From IMG/VR virus record IMGVR_UViG_2713896775_000008: a stretch of 6,080 nt of DNA. One strand, 5' to 3'. Source of the DNA: a virus (taxonomy: Duplodnaviria > Heunggongvirae > Uroviricota > Caudoviricetes). Below are positions 131-6,080 of the stretch, one piece after another. Under the pieces are notes generated by a model. That model searched no databases, had not been told where the DNA came from, and saw nothing but the letters and a program-made list of their open reading frames with translations. The position numbers were made by a program, and so were the translations under genes. The first letter of the stretch is position 1, and each line of letters starts with the position of its first letter.

Positions 131-346
131 TCATCGTTCCTTAAAGACGCCGTTTAACATGCCGATTGCCAGGCTTAAATGAGTCGGTGTGAATCCCATC
201 AGCGTTACCGTTTCGCGGTGCTTCTTCAGTACGCTACGGCAAATGTCATCGACGTTTTTATCCGGAAACTGCTGTCTGGCTTTTTTGATTTCAGAATTAG
301 CCTGACGGGCAATGCTGCGAAGGGCGTTTTCTTGCTGAGGTGTCAT
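131..346 (-). CDS. small hypothetical prophage protein (71 aa from MTPQQENALRSIARQ...)
   Basis: Open frame on the minus strand ending in TGA at 131-133. I chose the ATG at 346 (GGGG about 9 nt upstream); the ORF track gives an alternative start at 412 (93 aa), only 10 nt after the upstream ORF stop but with no Shine-Dalgarno. Size, orientation and pairing with the 63-aa ORF resemble the small proteins of the lambda exo-xis region, but I cannot verify homology without a search. Confidence 0.45.
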   Translation of the reverse strand: MTPQQENALRSIARQANSEIKKARQQFPDKNVDDICRSVLKKHRETVTLMGFTPTHLSLAIGMLNGVFKER

Positions 347-422
347 TGAACAAGCCCCATGTCGGCAAGCATAAGCACACAGAATATGAAGCCCGCTGCC
401 AGAAAAATGCATTCAGTGGTTG

Positions 423-614
423 TCATACCTGGTCTCTCTCATCTGCTTCTGCTTTCGCCACCATCATTTCCAGCTTTTGTGAAAGGGATGCGGCTAACGT
501 ATGAAATTCTTCGTCTGTTTCTACTGGTATTGGCACAAACCTGACTCCAATTTGAGCGAGGCTATGTGCCATCTCGATACACGTTCTTAACTCAACAGGA
601 GATGCTTTGTGCAT
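423..614 (-). CDS. small hypothetical prophage protein (63 aa, MHKASPVELRTCIEMAHSLAQIG...)
   Basis: Minus-strand ORF of 63 aa with a G-rich stretch (GGGGGG) 4 nt upstream of the ATG, transcribed in tandem with the 131-346 ORF. It is acidic and helical-looking. Possibly a lambda orf63-like exo-xis region protein; unverified. Confidence 0.5.
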   Translation of the reverse strand: MHKASPVELRTCIEMAHSLAQIGVRFVPIPVETDEEFHTLAASLSQKLEMMVAKAEADERDQV

Positions 615-732
615 ACAGCCCCCCGTTTATTATTTATCTCCTCAGCCAGCCGCTGTGCTTTCAGGGGATTTCTGATAACAGAAAGGCCGGGAAATACCCA
701 GCCTCGCTTTGTAACGGAGTAGACGAAAGTGA

Positions 733-957
733 TCGCACCTACCGGAAACAACGCGCGGCGCTCTTTACTCGTTCGTCTATAACGTGGGCGCAGGCAATTT
801 CAGAACATCTACTCTTCTTCGCAAAATAAACCAGGGCGATATCAAGGGCGCATGTGACCAGCTACGTCGCTGGGCATACGCTGGCGGTAAGCAATGGAAA
901 GGCCTGATGACTCGTCGTGAGATTGAGCGTGAGGTCTGTTTGTGGGGGCAACAATGA
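733..957 (+). pseudogene. endolysin (phage lysozyme) 3' remnant, 5' two-thirds missing
   Basis: The frame reads [74 protein letters not shown], which matches from memory the C-terminal ~75 aa of P21-type lambdoid endolysins. An in-frame TGA lies at 730-732 and there is no start or lysozyme-like sequence upstream. The stop TGA (955-957) overlaps the Rz start in ATGA, the classical R-Rz junction. Confidence 0.75.
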
Positions 958-1418
958 GCAGGGTAACCGCGATTATCTCCGCTCTGGTTATCTGCATCAT
1001 CGTCTGCCTGTCATGGGCTGTTAATCATTACCGTGATAACGCCATTACCTACAAAGCCCAGCGCGACAAAAATGCCAGAGAACTGAAGCTGGCGAACGCG
1101 GCAATTACTGACATGCAGATGCGTCAGCGTGATGTTGCTGCGCTCGATGCAAAATACACGAAGGAGTTAGCTGATGCGAAAGCTGAAAATGATGCTCTGC
1201 GTGATGATGTTGCCGCTGGTCGTCGTCGGTTGCACATCAAAGCAGTCTGTCAGTCAGTGCGTGAAGCCACCACCGCCTCCGGCGTGGATAATGCAGCCTC
1301 CCCCCGACTGGCAGACACCGCTGAACGGGATTATTTCACCCTCCGGGAACGACTGGTAATGATGCAGGCCCAACTTGAAGGTGCTCAGCAATACATAACC
1401 GAGCAGTGTTTAAAGTAA
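954..1418 (+). CDS. Rz: Rz i-spanin (inner-membrane spanin subunit)
   Basis: 154-aa product [60 protein letters not shown]..., near-identical over most of its length to lambda Rz as I recall it. It has an N-terminal transmembrane segment and a coiled-coil periplasmic domain. The ATG at 954 overlaps the endolysin remnant stop. Confidence 0.9.
1174..1359 (+). CDS. Rz1: Rz1 o-spanin (outer-membrane lipoprotein), nested in the +1 frame of Rz
   Basis: 61-aa product [61 protein letters not shown] with a lipobox (VVVGC) and proline-rich mature region. A strong AAGGAG Shine-Dalgarno lies at 1161-1166, 7 nt before the ATG. It is wholly embedded in Rz, as in lambda, and corresponds to rzoR-type genes of Rac-like prophages. 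Confidence 0.85.
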
Positions 1419-1439
1419 AATCTTAACTACAATATGATT

Positions 1440-1540
1440 CATTTTGATGATTGTTTCATAAGGAACAGTGAAGTAAGATCTAAGAGGAGTTAAATTTTAT
1501 ACAGTATAATCATAATATTGCAGCAAGGTGGTTATAATTG
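1440..1540 (+). promoter_or_regulatory. AT-rich putative promoter region upstream of trkG
   Basis: AT-rich intergenic tract with two TATAAT hexamers (1505-1510 and 1533-1538) and an AAGGTGG Shine-Dalgarno at 1525-1531. I could not pair either -10 hexamer with a good -35 at 16-18 bp, so the exact promoter is not defined. Confidence 0.3.
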
Positions 1541-1555
1541 AAAGAATATTTAGAT

Positions 1556-3013
1556 ATGAATACATCTCATGTAAGAGTTGTTACTCATATGTGTGGGTTC
1601 CTGGTTTGGCTCTATAGTCTTTCAATGTTGCCACCAATGGTTGTAGCATTGTTTTATAAAGAAAAAAGCCTGTTCGTTTTCTTTATAACTTTCGTTATAT
1701 TTTTTTGCATTGGTGGCGGAGCGTGGTATACAACTAAGAAATCTGGCATTCAATTACGTACCCGTGATGGGTTTATTATAATTGTAATGTTTTGGATTTT
1801 GTTTTCTGTTATTAGTGCATTCCCTTTATGGATTGACTCAGAACTTAATTTAACGTTCATTGATGCTCTGTTTGAAGGGGTTTCTGGAATAACAACAACA
1901 GGAGCAACTGTAATTGATGATGTTAGTTCATTACCTCGGGCATATTTGTACTATCGGTCACAGTTAAATTTTATAGGTGGTTTAGGAGTTATTGTTCTGG
2001 CGGTTGCTGTATTGCCATTATTGGGTATTGGTGGTACAAAGCTTTATCAGTCAGAAATGCCGGGGCCATTTAAGGATGACAAACTCACTCCCCGCCTGGC
2101 CGATACGTCACGGACACTGTGGATAACTTATTCTTTATTAGGTATTGCTTGTATTGTCTGTTATAGACTTGCAGGAATGCCTTTGTTTGATGCTATTTGT
2201 CACGGGATTTCCACAGTTTCGCTTGGTGGTTTCTCAACTCATAGCGAGAGTATCGGATATTTTAATAACTATTTGGTTGAGCTGGTGGCTGGTTCTTTTT
2301 CCCTGCTATCGGCTTTCAACTTCACTCTTTGGTATATTGTTATTAGCAGGAAAACGATAAAACCTTTAATCAGAGATATTGAACTTCGTTTCTTTCTGTT
2401 AATAGCCTTAGGGGTGATCATTGTTACCTCTTTCCAGGTCTGGCATATAGGTATGTATGACTTGCATGGAAGTTTTATTCATTCGTTTTTTCTTGCCAGC
2501 TCCATGCTCACTGATAATGGTTTAGCTACGCAGGATTATGCAAACTGGCCCACGCACACGATAGTGTTTTTGCTGTCGTCAAGTTTCTTTGGGGGATGTA
2601 TAGGTTCAACTTGTGGTGGAATTAAGTCACTTCGATTTCTTATACTTTTCAAACAAAGCAAACACGAGATAAATCAGCTTTCTCATCCCAGAGCGTTGTT
2701 GAGTGTAAATGTAGGAGGGAAGATAGTTACAGATCGTGTAATGAGGTCTGTATGGAGTTTCTTTTTTCTTTATACTCTCTTCACGGTGTTTTTTATACTG
2801 GTGTTAAATGGTATGGGATATGATTTTCTTACATCATTTGCAACAGTGGCTGCATGTATTAATAATATGGGATTAGGTTTTGGGGCTACTGCATCGTCAT
2901 TCGGAGTGCTTAATGACATTGCAAAATATTTAATGTGCATAGCTATGATTCTTGGTCGCCTTGAAATTTATCCTGTTATTATATTGTTTTCAGGTTTTTT
3001 TTGGCGCTCCTAA
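1556..3013 (+). CDS. trkG: Trk-system K+ uptake protein TrkG (TrkH/KtrB family membrane transporter)
   Basis: 485-aa polytopic membrane protein starting MNTSHVRVVTHMCGFLVWLYSLSMLPP..., with repeated glycine-containing selectivity-filter-like segments typical of TrkH-family proteins (e.g. TTTGATV, LGVIVLAVAVLPLLGIGG). It matches E. coli TrkG, which is known to reside in the Rac prophage. GC content is markedly lower than the flanks. An alternative TTG start at 1538 sits 6 nt after the AAGGTGG Shine-Dalgarno and would add 6 aa (MKEYLD). Confidence 0.93.
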   Translation: MNTSHVRVVTHMCGFLVWLYSLSMLPPMVVALFYKEKSLFVFFITFVIFFCIGGGAWYTTKKSGIQLRTRDGFIIIVMFWILFSVISAFPLWIDSELNLTFIDALFEGVSGITTTGATVIDDVSSLPRAYLYYRSQLNFIGGLGVIVLAVAVLPLLGIGGTKLYQSEMPGPFKDDKLTPRLADTSRTLWITYSLLGIACIVCYRLAGMPLFDAICHGISTVSLGGFSTHSESIGYFNNYLVELVAGSFSLLSAFNFTLWYIVISRKTIKPLIRDIELRFFLLIALGVIIVTSFQVWHIGMYDLHGSFIHSFFLASSMLTDNGLATQDYANWPTHTIVFLLSSSFFGGCIGSTCGGIKSLRFLILFKQSKHEINQLSHPRALLSVNVGGKIVTDRVMRSVWSFFFLYTLFTVFFILVLNGMGYDFLTSFATVAACINNMGLGFGATASSFGVLNDIAKYLMCIAMILGRLEIYPVIILFSGFFWRS

Positions 3014-3099
3014 TATATGGCTGATTTATAATTGTGAGTTTAATATTATATTGACTCACTCATTGATCCAATACCTAACTTTACCAGCAACACCTCCGC

Positions 3100-3134
3100 C
3101 CCCAGTAGCACTGGCTGCTGGGGTGCGTTTTATT
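3100..3134 (+). terminator. putative terminator downstream of trkG
   Basis: Imperfect stem CCCCAGTAGC (3100-3109) / GCTGCTGGGG (3114-3123) with loop ACTG and one mismatch, followed after TGCG by TTTTATT (3128-3134). The U-tract is not directly adjacent to the stem. Confidence 0.4.
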
Positions 3135-3150
3135 CATAAAGCAAGGCTGT

Positions 3151-3582
3151 ATGAGCGAGAAATTAAAGATAGTCTATCGCCCATTACAAGAATTGTCACC
3201 GTATGCGCACAACGCCAGGACGCACAGTACTGAGCAGGTGGCACAACTGGTAGAAAGTATTAAGCAATTCGGCTGGACTAATCCGGTGCTGATTGACGAA
3301 AAGGGCGAAATTATTGCGGGTCACGGTCGTGTTATGGCGGCTGAAATGCTCAAAATGGATTCTGTTCCGGTCATTGTTCTGTCTGGCCTGACGGATGAGC
3401 AGAAAAAGGCGTACCGCCTGGCAGATAATCGCCTACCGATGAATGCTGGCTGGGATGAAGATCTGTTGCGGATGGAGCTGTCGGACCTAATCAATGCTGA
3501 TTTTGATGTCTCCCTGACAGGCTTCGGCCCGACAGAAATTGATGAACTGTTGACGGATGTTTTGCCCGGTATCGGGCCTTAA
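3151..3582 (+). CDS. ParB-like nuclease-domain protein (ParB N-terminal/sulfiredoxin fold), possibly a truncated ParB-methyltransferase
   Basis: 143-aa ORF with AAGG 4 nt upstream of the ATG. The N-terminus (KIVYRPLQELSPYAHNARTHS...GEIIAGHGRVMAA) carries the hallmark ParB N-terminal domain motifs seen in standalone ParB-like proteins and in phage ParB-DNA methyltransferase fusions. It ends where the methyltransferase domain would start in such fusions. Confidence 0.75.
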   Translation: MSEKLKIVYRPLQELSPYAHNARTHSTEQVAQLVESIKQFGWTNPVLIDEKGEIIAGHGRVMAAEMLKMDSVPVIVLSGLTDEQKKAYRLADNRLPMNAGWDEDLLRMELSDLINADFDVSLTGFGPTEIDELLTDVLPGIGP

Positions 3583-3585
3583 TTT

Positions 3586-4113
3586 TTACTCTGGTTTTTG
3601 TGGCCATTCAGGATTTGCCGTATCCACACGGCTGACCAGAACACTGTAGCGTTCCCATGCTTCCAGTCGTGTGCGTTCCTCGTCTGTTGCCATATTCAGC
3701 CTGACAGCGCGTTCCAGCGGTTGGATGACTGATTCAGCTTCGGAAAGCAATGCGGCCTTTTGTGATTCGGCCTGTTGTTGTTGCTCGTCTGCCGTATAAA
3801 TCCGTTTAACCACAGCTCCGTCCCTAAACATCCACTTACTGGAATCATCAGCGCAGCGGTTGGCTGTAATATCTGGAACCTCAACGACGCTATAACCTTC
3901 AGGGTTAAGCGTGGAGGCATCTTTGGTGATGGCGACAATAATATTATTTGCATCGTAAACAATCTTTATTGTGTCTGGCTGAAAGTTTTTCACTTCCTCA
4001 TACCAGTTTTTTCCGTCTTCGGACCATAACCAGATAACATCAAAATTCTTTGTTAGCTGATATTGTTCTTTTGTTTTTGGATTTCCAGACTTAATATTTT
4101 TTAAATGCTGCAT
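3586..4113 (-). CDS. tfa: phage tail fibre assembly protein (Tfa chaperone)
   Basis: 175-aa minus-strand ORF. Its C-terminal region ([30 protein letters not shown]) matches the conserved C-terminus of lambda/e14/Rac Tfa proteins as I recall them. An AGGTG Shine-Dalgarno sits 6 nt upstream of the ATG, and the gene starts 3 nt after the tail-fibre cassette stop, the usual stf-tfa coupling. Confidence 0.88.
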
Positions 4114-4116
4114 AAA

Positions 4117-5121
4117 TTACACCTGTACGACGTTATACCATGTGCCATTGATGTATTTTTGTATTGGTCTGAATACTGCCGGATCATCGCCATCAACTGC
4201 ACCGATAATGCCAAGCCCCGTAATTGCATGACCTGATTTCTCATACATCACGCCTTTTTGCATAGTCTGAACAACACGTGTACCAAGTCGGACATCTCTC
4301 ACATAACGTGAGTCAAAATTACCATAATTGCCGGGAATAACTTGCGCACCGCAAAGCCAGTTGCCATTGTTGTCCATGTACGCCTGACCATCGGTGCCAT
4401 TGGCTGTCCTTGAGTTATTAATCATGTAGATGCCAAATTGCTTATTCCCCAGTCCACCAATCATAAATTTGCGATCAGCGTGGTCCTGACGAAGTAATGC
4501 CTGCGCACCATCGGTGGATACCGCATTGCGTCCCAAAATAACATTCTGGTCACGCATATGAATCCACATGCCGGTACTACTGTTAATTGCAAAACGGTTT
4601 GCAAATATATCCCCTGTAACATCAAGACCATGCCCCATGCTTATCCGACCAGTTCTGAGATTAAGCGTAAAGGGGCGTAGTGGCCCTATATCACCATTTT
4701 CTCCCTCATTCTCTCGTGTAGGGATGATATGCAGGCATTCTTCAGAACGACGAAAAATAGCACCAAAAGATGAATTAAATATCCTCAGTGCATTGACTGT
4801 CGATATTTTTACTTCACTGCTGAAAAGGGCTTTAACAAGGACAGACAAAGCATCCCATTTAAGAGTCATCAGGTCTTTTGTTGTGGTGCTCTGGCGGCTT
4901 CTCCATTTGAAATATTCATTGCCGTTGTCGCCTGTTTCAAACCACATGTATGAATCAGTGTCGCTGTCGGCATTATTTTTAAAACCAATCTTTGCCCAGT
5001 CAGTATTTCTAATCCAGGCAAGGATTGAGTCGTTTTCAAAAGTAAGCCCACCGGACAAGGTATCGCCATTCTTTTGCACGGCGTTCCTGGCCCTGTTTAC
5101 CGTTTCCTGTAAACCGAGGTT
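4117..5121 (-). CDS. stf: tail fibre C-terminal (receptor-binding) variable cassette, partial and start-less
   Basis: Minus-strand open frame of about 334 codons with tail-fibre-like composition (Gly/Asn/Thr-rich, ...GDTLSGGLTFENDSILAWIRN...GTWYNVVQV), immediately followed by tfa. The frame is open from just after an in-frame TAA at 5122-5124 inside the crossover site. It has no ATG or Shine-Dalgarno; the ORF-track start at 5079 is an internal GTG. This is the expected structure of the silent variable half of an invertible tail-fibre segment. Confidence 0.78.
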   Translation of the reverse strand, partial: NLGLQETVNRARNAVQKNGDTLSGGLTFENDSILAWIRNTDWAKIGFKNNADSDTDSYMWFETGDNGNEYFKWRSRQSTTTKDLMTLKWDALSVLVKALFSSEVKISTVNALRIFNSSFGAIFRRSEECLHIIPTRENEGENGDIGPLRPFTLNLRTGRISMGHGLDVTGDIFANRFAINSSTGMWIHMRDQNVILGRNAVSTDGAQALLRQDHADRKFMIGGLGNKQFGIYMINNSRTANGTDGQAYMDNNGNWLCGAQVIPGNYGNFDSRYVRDVRLGTRVVQTMQKGVMYEKSGHAITGLGIIGAVDGDDPAVFRPIQKYINGTWYNVVQV

Positions 5122-5129
5122 TTAGATAA
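5104..5129. other. gix/pix/cix-type 26-bp crossover site for a serine DNA invertase
   Basis: TTCCTGTAAACC-GA-GGTTTTAGATAA: two 12-bp half-sites in imperfect inverted symmetry around a central GA dinucleotide. From memory it differs from the phage Mu gix site at about one position. It lies 55 bp upstream of the invertase start and at the 5' boundary of the tail-fibre cassette. Confidence 0.75.
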
Positions 5130-5183
5130 TGGCGGTTTCTGGCCTGCATGGCATGATTTGTGCTTTTGGACGGGAGATTCAGC

Positions 5184-5292
5184 GTGCTGATTGGCTATGT
5201 AAGGGTATCAACAAATGACCAGAATACAGACCTGCAACGAAACGCTCTTGTTTGTGCAGGATGTGAACAAATATTTGAAGATAAATTAAGCG
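5184..5292 (+). pseudogene. pin: Gin/Pin/Cin/Hin-family serine DNA invertase, N-terminal 37 codons only (interrupted by IS26)
   Basis: The frame from GTG 5184 reads [37 protein letters not shown], the diagnostic serine-recombinase N-terminus with catalytic Ser in the YVRVSTxDQ motif, matching Pin/Gin as I recall them. The reading frame runs straight into the IS26 inverted repeat at 5293. Alternative in-frame starts are GTG 5160 and TTG 5166. Confidence 0.85.
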
Positions 5293-5306
5293 GGCACTGT
5301 TGCAAA
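5293..5306 (+). repeat. IS26 left terminal inverted repeat (14 bp)
   Basis: Exact GGCACTGTTGCAAA. The 8 bp immediately outside (ATTAAGCG, 5285-5292) would be the target-site duplication if this was a simple insertion, but the right flank is not in the window. Confidence 0.85.
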
Positions 5307-5355
5307 TAGTCGGTGGTGATAAACTTATCATCCCCTTTTGCTGATGGAGCTGCAC

Positions 5356-6060
5356 ATGAACCCATTCAAAGGCCGGCATTTTCAGCGTGACATCATTCTG
5401 TGGGCCGTACGCTGGTACTGCAAATACGGCATCAGTTACCGTGAGCTGCAGGAGATGCTGGCTGAACGCGGAGTGAATGTCGATCACTCCACGATTTACC
5501 GCTGGGTTCAGCGTTATGCGCCTGAAATGGAAAAACGGCTGCGCTGGTACTGGCGTAACCCTTCCGATCTTTGCCCGTGGCACATGGATGAAACCTACGT
5601 GAAGGTCAATGGCCGCTGGGCGTATCTGTACCGGGCCGTCGACAGCCGGGGCCGCACTGTCGATTTTTATCTCTCCTCCCGTCGTAACAGCAAAGCTGCA
5701 TACCGGTTTCTGGGTAAAATCCTCAACAACGTGAAGAAGTGGCAGATCCCGCGATTCATCAACACGGATAAAGCGCCCGCCTATGGTCGCGCGCTTGCTC
5801 TGCTCAAACGCGAAGGCCGGTGCCCGTCTGACGTTGAACACCGACAGATTAAGTACCGGAACAACGTGATTGAATGCGATCATGGCAAACTGAAACGGAT
5901 AATCGGCGCCACGCTGGGATTTAAATCCATGAAGACGGCTTACGCCACCATCAAAGGTATTGAGGTGATGCGTGCACTACGCAAAGGCCAGGCCTCAGCA
6001 TTTTATTATGGTGATCCCCTGGGCGAAATGCGCCTGGTAAGCAGAGTTTTTGAAATGTAA
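5356..6060 (+). CDS. tnpA: IS26 transposase Tnp26 (DDE transposase, IS6 family)
   Basis: 234-aa ORF MNPFKGRHFQRDIILWAVRWYCKYGISYRELQEMLAERGVNVDHSTIYRWVQRYAPEMEKRLRW...LVSRVFEM, recognised as the IS26 transposase. The ORF-track start at 5338 adds 6 unlikely residues; the ATG at 5356 gives the canonical length. Confidence 0.95.
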   Translation: MNPFKGRHFQRDIILWAVRWYCKYGISYRELQEMLAERGVNVDHSTIYRWVQRYAPEMEKRLRWYWRNPSDLCPWHMDETYVKVNGRWAYLYRAVDSRGRTVDFYLSSRRNSKAAYRFLGKILNNVKKWQIPRFINTDKAPAYGRALALLKREGRCPSDVEHRQIKYRNNVIECDHGKLKRIIGATLGFKSMKTAYATIKGIEVMRALRKGQASAFYYGDPLGEMRLVSRVFEM

Positions 6061-6080
6061 GGCCTTTGAATAAGACAAAA

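Follow-up and report, generated by a model that had tools for sequence, protein, structure and literature searches.

A probable deletion scar in a Rac prophage fragment and a left breakpoint that appears to be reused across E. coli lineages

The joint between the ParB-like gene and tfa

The window analyzed here is the whole 6,080-nucleotide stretch of DNA from the IMG/VR virus record IMGVR_UViG_2713896775_000008 (Caudoviricetes). It carries a fragment of the Rac prophage in which a ParB-like gene of the ynaK family runs into the convergent tail fiber assembly gene tfa. In the open reading frame (ORF) listing, the ParB-like ORF (143 aa) occupies 3151-3582 on the plus strand and the tfa ORF (175 aa) occupies 3586-4113 on the minus strand, leaving a stop-to-stop spacer of 3 nt (3583-3585). 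An earlier note, made from the sequence alone, had found this spacing unusually tight and had proposed that the junction is a deletion scar. Both the spacing and the gene identities hold, given the ORF listing and the Pfam matches to ParB_N and Caudo_TAP. The features at the joint are as follows (here and below, a slash within a sequence marks the break).

3151-3571, plus strand: native part of the ParB-like (ynaK-family) gene, codons 1-140 of 263; colinear with the Rac loci L001, L002, and L007 at 98.6-99.1% up to 3571.
3560-3571, plus strand: site 1, the recurrent left breakpoint, TTTTGCCCGGTA/, with the break after 3571; the same left end occurs with ~30 right partners.
3564-3571, no strand: junction microhomology, GCCCGGTA in the left parent versus GCCCGCTA in the right parent, from overlapping BLAST segments and the parental sequences.
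3572-3585, plus strand: terminator sequence from between the two parental tfa genes, matching L001 7304-7317 and L002 7454-7467 exactly.
3564-3587, plus strand: chimeric 5-bp hairpin GCCCG-GTAT-CGGGC (3564-3577) followed by the T-run CTTAATTTTT.
3586-4113, minus strand: tfa, the tail fiber assembly gene, in the retained half of an e14/Mu-type invertible segment (Caudo_TAP, E 4.8e-37).

Alignment against Rac loci placed the breakpoints to the single base. By BLAST, window 740-3571 corresponds to 3641-6472 of L001 (PK8568) and window 3564-5293 to L001 7296-9025; relative to PK8568, 824 bp are absent from the window and 8 bp are common to the two sides at the joint. The left parent reads ...GATGTTTTGCCCGGTA/CAGGAAATGAGG..., the right parent ...GAGAAGGCCCGCTA/TCGGGCCTTAATTTTTAC..., and the window ...GATGTTTTGCCCGGTA/TCGGGCCTTAATTTTTAC.... 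Codon 140 of the ParB-like gene (ORF nt 421, window 3571) is joined to the loop of the tfa-tfa terminator hairpin (parent GGCCCGCTA/TCGGGCC) across a microhomology of 7/8, and the G at 3569 is a marker of the left parent, which places the crossover within the TA at 3570-3571. Both parents are thus identified, GCCCGGTA faces GCCCGCTA, and the two alignments overlap, as is expected of a microhomology-mediated junction. The last three codons of the truncated ORF (141-143, I-G-P), its stop codon (TAA, 3580-3582), and the 3-nt spacer are all derived from the hairpin. The closest undeleted relatives differ from the window at 25 of 2,832 bases on the left arm (PK8568) and at 2 of 1,721 on the right arm. 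The junction is, on these alignments, almost certainly a deletion scar in a decayed Rac prophage fragment, much as the earlier note had suggested. That note had pictured two 3′ ends brought together; in fact, the ParB-like gene is joined at its middle to a terminator hairpin that lies between genes. The lost DNA included the C-terminal half of the ParB-like gene, a TET-associated glycosyltransferase (TAGT) gene, the genes for packaging, head, and tail, and the second half of the invertible segment. The deletion amounts to at least 20 kb relative to intact Rac, or to 824-974 bp if the parent had already been shortened (PK8568- or Combat13F7-like).

The distribution of the junction was examined in 5,426 complete E. 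coli genomes (20,395 records), the sample to which the genome counts below refer. Only 24 records cover the junction region, 21 of them in one piece and three (PK8568, SZQ1, and Combat13F7) in two pieces with 0.8-1 kb of extra DNA. The window-type junction therefore occurs in 21/20,395 records, and always within one IS26/plasmid-borne composite. The TC24 chromosome contains the window at 100% identity, and in plasmid pABWA45_1 the matching stretch departs from the window at one mismatch and one single-base indel; the plasmid trkG is annotated as frameshifted, unlike that of the window. In both TC24 and pABWA45_1 the Rac fragment has the order 'rrrD-rzpD-trkG-ParB143/tfa-'stf-pix-pin'. To its left lies a lambda-like int/xis arm, and to its right follow IS26, a Tn3 remnant, and plasmid repA. 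From these records, the window junction looks like one that arose once and spread with the mobile composite.

Two other origins of the junction can be weighed directly on this evidence. If the arrangement were ancestral, the 143-aa protein would be naturally full length and tfa would always be its convergent neighbor. The Prokaryotic Genome Annotation Pipeline (PGAP) does annotate the 143-aa ORF as an intact coding sequence in some genomes, and residue ~139 coincides with a natural domain boundary in homologs. However, the 143-aa form is confined to the 21 records of the one composite, whereas a 263-aa form is present in ~950 genomes and in distant phages, so the pattern that the earlier note had named as evidence against a deletion (a conserved, ancestral 143-aa form) is not what was found. 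In addition, the final three codons and stop of the 143-aa ORF match the hairpin between the tfa genes exactly, and the mapped parental sequences refute an ancestral origin, to which we give practically no weight. An adjacent deletion mediated by IS26 is just as improbable. An IS26 copy does lie 1.7 kb away and has truncated pin, but there is no insertion sequence end at the junction, the same left end is found in chromosomal Rac copies without IS26, and Rac DNA with microhomology lies on both sides, a junction sequence inconsistent with such an event.

The full-length form of the gene bears out the truncation. ParB_N (PF02195) matches residues 23-90 of the window protein (E 3.4e-7; 30.7 bits against a gathering cut-off of 26.3), placing it in that family, and PDB Spo0J/ParB N-domains match residues 7-93 of a full-length relative. 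The full-length gene encodes 263 aa in L001 (PK8568), L006 (GD33), and L007 (phage record ON470595, a nearly intact Rac), and this form together with the start of the next gene is found in 943-960 genomes. The 263-aa protein is 40% identical to Lactobacillus phage proteins over residues 2-259 and to a Haloarcula virus protein over residues 13-252. Compared with ~260 aa in this ynaK/ParB-like phage family, the window protein is not full length, with 143 aa against 263; the profile search, which the earlier note had suggested for this purpose, recovers ParB_N in it. K-12 YnaK is shorter still (87 aa); there the same gene is cut at the equivalent of window 3404 and fused to ydaY, a gene found 11 kb farther downstream in intact Rac. 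The ynaK and ydaY genes of K-12 MG1655 are accordingly the two sides of one deletion scar (window 3404; L004 4131/4132; L007 31817).

Downstream of the native gene come, in order, the TAGT gene (PF20691), terS (Terminase_2), terL (Terminase_6N/6C), and portal. The earlier note had supposed that the ORF stops where a fused methyltransferase domain would begin. The boundary itself stands: a Yersinia phage homolog (196 aa) is 61% identical up to residue 137-139 and unrelated beyond an acidic linker, and residue ~139 is a real module or domain boundary. The methyltransferase does not stand: Pfam finds only ParB_N in the 263-aa protein, the C-terminal 123 aa of which have no Pfam match, and the next gene is a separate TAGT gene, which together rule out a ParB-methyltransferase fusion. 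The native pair (ParB-like, 263 aa, and TAGT; L007 20001-21717) has a counterpart in Lactobacillus phages, in which a ParB-like gene is followed by one annotated as 'glucosyltransferase'. This pair looks like a putative module of the DNA-modification type just upstream of the terminase genes; no description of it was found in the searchable literature.

On the other side of the joint, the parental hairpin sits between the plus-strand tfa and the minus-strand tfa that is kept in the window. It has an 8-bp stem (AAGGCCCG-CUAU-CGGGCCUU) followed by a U-run (-20.6 kcal/mol, z -4.18) between two convergent tfa stops and is a genuine intrinsic terminator between convergent genes. In the window the stem is cut from 8 to 5 bp, its 5′ arm having been swapped for ParB-like coding sequence that by chance pairs for 5 bp. 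The resulting structure (-10.4 kcal/mol, z -0.94 on the plus strand) passes a simple terminator pattern scan and is not more stable than shuffled sequences. The earlier note had read it as a weak plus-strand terminator; the hairpin and T-run are indeed present, but they are the damaged remnant of a strong one.

Reuse of the left end, and a second site

Taken alone, the window junction is an ordinary prophage deletion scar, the product of ordinary prophage decay. Its left end, in comparison, is found again and again with other partners. Among truncated alleles sampled in complete genomes, four of nine end exactly at site 1, with partners that include sitA and two points in stfR. Combat13F7 (L002) shares this left end, which is fused there in frame with the interior of the tail fiber variable region, and in strain B19 it is joined in frame to the coat gene; the continuations after GGTA differ in L002, L005, L008, L009, L010, L011, and L013. 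In IMG/VR, nine of 117 left-arm loci are non-native and fall into eight kinds, one of which breaks 6 nt further right. A scan of metagenomes for the left arm followed by any base except the native C yielded two further partners and two window-type junctions, and a scan of genome contigs found nothing.

When the 143-aa product served as the query of a protein search, dozens of clusters matched it at 98-100% identity as far as ...DVLPG; beyond that point they continue as Lom, Tfa, tail protein L, terminase, or coat fragments or in other frames. Clusters diverge at residue 140 in 31 cases, at 141 in eight, and at 142 in five, compared with ~16 across the next 120 codons; the census was ranked on the 143-aa query and clustered at 90% identity, with the result that breakpoints before codon 140 and very late ones are under-sampled, whereas the comparison inside codons 140-190 is unaffected by the ranking. 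When the tails were mapped on intact Rac and K-12 DNA, 23 distinct junctions had their left parent end at ORF nt 421 and one more at 420. The right parents lie from 365 bp to >18 kb downstream in the phage record, farther away in K-12 tail fiber genes, and once in the early region on the opposite strand. That last junction (P0013) continues into the opposite strand of the early region left of the gene (L007 ~7361, minus), which implies an inversion-type rearrangement. Over all sources, ~30 right partners (terminase, coat, tail, lom, stf, tfa, and sitA) share one left terminus.

It is important to consider whether these events are independent. At least three left-flank haplotypes carry the junction types, and undeleted relatives share each of these haplotypes: the window groups with PK8568, L009 with GD33, and L002, L005, and L010 with ON470595. 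The pattern is also one-sided, as a foreign left partner was found in 0/80 right-arm loci and deletions run only toward the structural genes. Selection for in-frame fusions was considered and rejected, in that two of six fusions are in frame, which is the chance level. Judged from these comparisons, the left breakpoint is very probably a real hot spot, precise to the single nucleotide and reused in independent E. coli lineages. The searchable literature (ynaK, Rac/terminase/deletion, and deletion hot spots) yielded no account of a recurrent Rac breakpoint.

A second site of the same kind (site 2) lies 449 bp downstream of site 1 in intact Rac (GTGCTGGCTA/TACCGGGAAAATTTT) and holds an inverted copy of TTTTGCCCGGTA. 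Its break is at L007 20870/20871 (GCTGGCTA/TACCGGGAAAA), and at both sites the cut position directly follows CCCGGTA on the motif-bearing strand. Site 2 serves as a left end in the deletion of PK8568 itself, where it is joined to the interior of the plus-strand tfa, and in OHT76-1, in a different allele, where it is joined to stf. As a right end, it forms with site 1 the palindromic junction CCCGGTA/TACCGGG, which one metagenome contig carries and which recurs in a protein cluster present on 37 contigs, one of them a 4.7-Mb chromosome. The metagenome contig with this junction (L013) has lost a further 8 kb between the TAGT gene and the region past the coat gene in a second deletion (L007 21480/29431; 606-610 of the right arm).

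There is some recurrence among right partners as well. One position in stf (...GGTCGGGTAA/CCGCGC...) served as the right partner in two independent Rac deletions, one from site 1 and one from site 2, and it is used again in the K-12 Qin nohA/stfQ scar (L019, the MG1655 1635838 region; L020 3000/3001; L009 5150/5151; L018 4147/4148). It lies 316 aa from the fiber C-terminus, which is the location of the Sc/Sv crossover site in invertible fibers, and it loosely resembles pix (13/22 positions in a hand alignment).

Possible sources of a fixed end

All mapped site-1 junctions have at least 1 nt of microhomology and 17/19 have at least 2 nt, mostly TA and up to 5, always abutting nt 421. Junctions elsewhere in the gene show the same range of microhomology (0-8 nt), but their left ends are scattered. 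Beyond the terminal bases, agreement of the parental right sites with positions -8 to -3 of the left arm is 2.75/6, compared with 1.55 +/- 0.24 at random TA sites (P<5e-5). Because of this extended matching, partner choice resembles the annealing of a strand through its final 6-8 nt with its terminal bases paired, as a primer terminus requires.

The reading that we prefer is that a DNA strand repeatedly gains a 3′ end at ...CCCGGTA-3′, which could be produced by a site-specific cut or nick or by arrest of a rightward replication fork. This end would anneal through its last 6-8 nt to an imperfectly matching downstream sequence and would then be extended or ligated (microhomology-mediated joining or template switching), with deletion of the intervening DNA. 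We regard the scar, the recurrent left end, and the fixed-end mechanism, taken jointly, as the probable explanation overall; for the fixed 3′ end at site 1 resulting from a site-specific break or arrest, we would put the chances at about even.

A simpler possibility is a one-off slipped mispairing at the 7/8 direct repeat GCCCG(G/C)TA, perhaps aided by the complementary arm TCGGGC, in which case the shared left ends would reflect coincidence or a thermodynamic preference for GC-rich microhomology, and no special break would be needed. The 7/8 microhomology at the joint is as slippage would have it, the loop would be just 824-974 nt with a PK8568- or Combat13F7-like parent, and the retained side of the right parents is modestly complementary to the left arm (3.35 vs. 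2.79 +/- 0.20, P=0.008). Nevertheless, ~30 partners end on the same nucleotide, including partners 2-25 kb away, and one has no terminal microhomology in the available allele. A GC block as the driver would scatter crossovers in and around CCCGG rather than place them always at TA/, and other GC-rich microhomologies in the gene are not recurrently used. We consider slippage improbable.

Several points weigh against the preferred reading, in addition to the sampling limits of the protein census noted above. The direct parent of the window junction was sought, and the closest relative found is 0.9% diverged on the left arm. The left flank is identical over 2 kb in three junction types, and some of the events could thus have followed one another in one lineage. 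No agent that makes the end turned up among the candidates tested (Ter, Chi, hairpin, and contig ends). There is no match to the Ter core GTTGTAAC at ≤1 mismatch within 1.5 kb (the nearest weak 14-mer is 1.2 kb away) and no Chi within 1.2 kb of site 1; Ter/Tus arrest and Chi-defined ends were rejected on this basis. No strong local hairpin occurs at site 1. An 800-bp stretch contains nine inverted-repeat pairs of comparable quality, that of sites 1 and 2 among them; the latter is thus not exceptional as a structure, although it may still explain the 449-bp palindromic deletion. No viral contig ends at the site in 117 IMG/VR stretches (0/117), which is a weak test as these are mostly prophage predictions from genomes; the phage records used are likewise in silico prophages without measured ends. 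Finally, of the eight copies of the heptamer CCCGGTA in the prophage, the one in rrrD shows no pile-up, with partial matches in 1.7% of genomes there compared with 13.5% around site 1 (few partial matches were sampled). A heptamer-specific nuclease is weakly rejected by this sparse sampling.

A specific version of the preferred reading is that site 1 is, or lies within, a pac/cos-like packaging-initiation site. Terminase would cut an unexcised prophage and spool rightward, and the left end would be rescued by microhomology joining to a sister copy. In the late operon, site 1 precedes terS by 1.5 kb, and the deletions follow the direction of packaging. TerS belongs to the Terminase_2 family, which includes SPP1-type small terminases, and SPP1 is said in the literature on that phage to make a precise pac cut. 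Furthermore, in Lactobacillus and Yersinia phages the ParB-like gene adjoins the terminase genes at the start of the record. Set against this are the lack of viral contigs that start or end at the site (mostly prophage predictions, as above), a TerL of the T4 type (Terminase_6N/6C) that is usually tied to headful packaging, the fact that cells reaching packaging normally lyse, and a second, inverted recurrent site that would be unexpected for a pac site. We consider packaging initiation an unlikely source of the end, if a less remote one than slippage.

The TA common to nearly all junctions raises a different possibility, in which the serine invertase Pin recombines a pix-like site 1 with pseudo-sites and 2-bp (TA) crossovers give rise to deletions. 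In undeleted alleles, the 9 nt from the site-1 TA onward (TACAGGAAA, L007 20420-20428) are part of the pix half-site GGTTTACAGGAAA (complementary strand, window 5104-5116), and the recurrent stf partner, with its 13/22 resemblance to pix by hand alignment, lies where the Sc/Sv crossover would be. However, an invertase acting in register with the 9-nt match would cut 6 nt farther left, after TTTTGC, where no junction ends, and with TA as the center neither half-site is pix-like. The breakpoint is thus not at the central dinucleotide of a crossover-like sequence, as a serine-invertase quasi-site would have it. The retained sides of the right partners share little sequence and no motif, two junctions share only 1 nt, and minor neighboring ends at 420-426 do not fit site-specific exchange. 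A role for Pin is therefore very unlikely.

The preferred reading, that of a fixed 3′ end, can be taken further, although only tentatively. Rac-like prophages might have a built-in site, TTTT[G]CCCGGTA^, for sequence-specific cleavage or arrest. Its two copies, inverted relative to each other, bracket the 3′ half of the ParB-like gene together with the start of the TAGT gene, and it could be a packaging-initiation site or a target of the ParB-like/TAGT pair. Repeated breakage in unexcised prophages would then drive one-sided loss of structural genes, a programmed-looking route to domestication rather than random decay. We think this extended proposal possible but doubtful.

Prophage inactivation is usually modeled as random deletion filtered by selection. 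In this well-known cryptic prophage, a large share of the independent deletions appear to start at one nucleotide and run one way, and therefore a specific molecular event (a cut, a nick, or fork arrest) may be involved that can be located and tested. A breakpoint that is nucleotide-precise, one-sided, and reused many times is not ordinary; it points to an unrecognized site-specific DNA end in Rac. Should the site prove to be a packaging site or the target of the ParB-like/glycosyltransferase pair, a phage function would be linked directly to the process by which the prophage becomes defective. The same reading would account for the numerous chimeric ORFs that carry the annotation 'ParB/Srx N-terminal domain' in E. 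coli genomes.

Other features of the window and comparison with known systems

The remaining features of the window are as follows.

1556-3013, plus strand: trkG, the Rac prophage K+ transporter cargo gene and upstream neighbor of the ParB-like gene (Pfam TrkH, E 8.9e-144; PGAP annotation in identical loci).
2281-2288: a correctly oriented Chi inside trkG, GCTGGTGG.
4117-5118, minus strand: variable C-terminal part (Sv') of a tail fiber gene, without the N-terminal constant part (Gp34_trimer domain; PGAP 'phage tail protein, missing N-terminus').
5104-5129, no strand: a single Pin/Gin-type crossover site, TTCCTGTAAACCGAGGTTTTAGATAA, the sole match in the window at up to 3 mismatches.
5184-5293, plus strand: pin', an invertase stump of ~37 codons truncated by IS26 (PGAP 'recombinase, missing C-terminus'); Rac homology stops at 5293.
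5293-6080, plus strand: IS26, with its left inverted repeat GGCACTGTTGCAAA from 5293 and transposase at 5338-6060 (DDE_Tnp_IS240, E 2.5e-48; annotated as IS26 in matching records).

At the left, window 131-745 is another scar, where lambda-like early-left genes adjoin a lysozyme gene without its N-terminus. The DUF1382 and DUF1317 ORFs are on the minus strand at 131-412 and 423-614, and identity to Rac loci begins at window 740. The trkG gene with its flanks (window 1430-3060) is markedly AT-rich compared with neighboring phage genes, as expected of a cargo gene.

The tail fiber switch is frozen: what remains is a half-segment with one crossover site (5104-5129; no second Gin/Pin-type site was found in the window in a search at up to 3 mismatches) and a pin gene cut by IS26. 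The ORF of the pin stump (49 aa) covers only positions 2-44 of the 145-position resolvase N-terminal domain profile in Pfam, so the window has no intact serine invertase gene and does not hold a complete Gin/Pin-type invertible segment. Half of the inversion segment is therefore missing, as the earlier note had stated. In the chromosomal relatives (L001 8916-9233; L002 9066-9383), a 64-aa pin stump runs into the final ~90 nt of a K-12-type tfaR, with pinR next. Given this further scar, one Rac lineage would have accumulated several nested rearrangements of the fiber region.

The invertible segments of Mu (G/Gin), P1 (C/Cin), and e14 (P/Pin) share with the window tfa, a variable fiber C-terminus, a 26-bp crossover site, and an adjacent invertase in the canonical order, whereas the window keeps one half-segment, one crossover site, and a 37-codon invertase stump. 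Similarly, the parental hairpin conforms to intrinsic terminators between convergent genes, whereas in the window the 5′ arm has been replaced and the ORF stop codon lies between stem and U-run. The ParB-methyltransferase fusions of phages and plasmids resemble the native protein in having an N-terminal ParB/Srx domain and a homologous module that ends near residue 139; the full-length relative differs from them in that it lacks a methyltransferase domain and has as its partner a separate TAGT gene.

For the scar itself, the nearest counterparts are those of the cryptic lambdoid prophages of K-12 (Rac ynaK/ydaY and Qin nohA/stfQ, the latter with the microhomology TAA), in which late-gene fragments are likewise fused through a few bases of microhomology to give chimeric ORFs. 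Compared with the ynaK/ydaY scar, the left end in the window is site 1 rather than window 3404, and the right end is a terminator hairpin rather than a coding region. For the hot spot, the closest parallel is the terB/Tus plasmid systems, in which Bierne, Ehrlich, and Michel reportedly described (EMBO J, 1991 and 1997) deletion hot spots at replication arrest sites. There, too, one endpoint is fixed and the other is variable and picked by short homology. The two cases differ in that no Ter-like sequence lies near site 1, where arrest is one possible source of the end, and in that the orientation of the motif at sites 1 and 2 fits a cut at the edge of the motif better than a bound roadblock.

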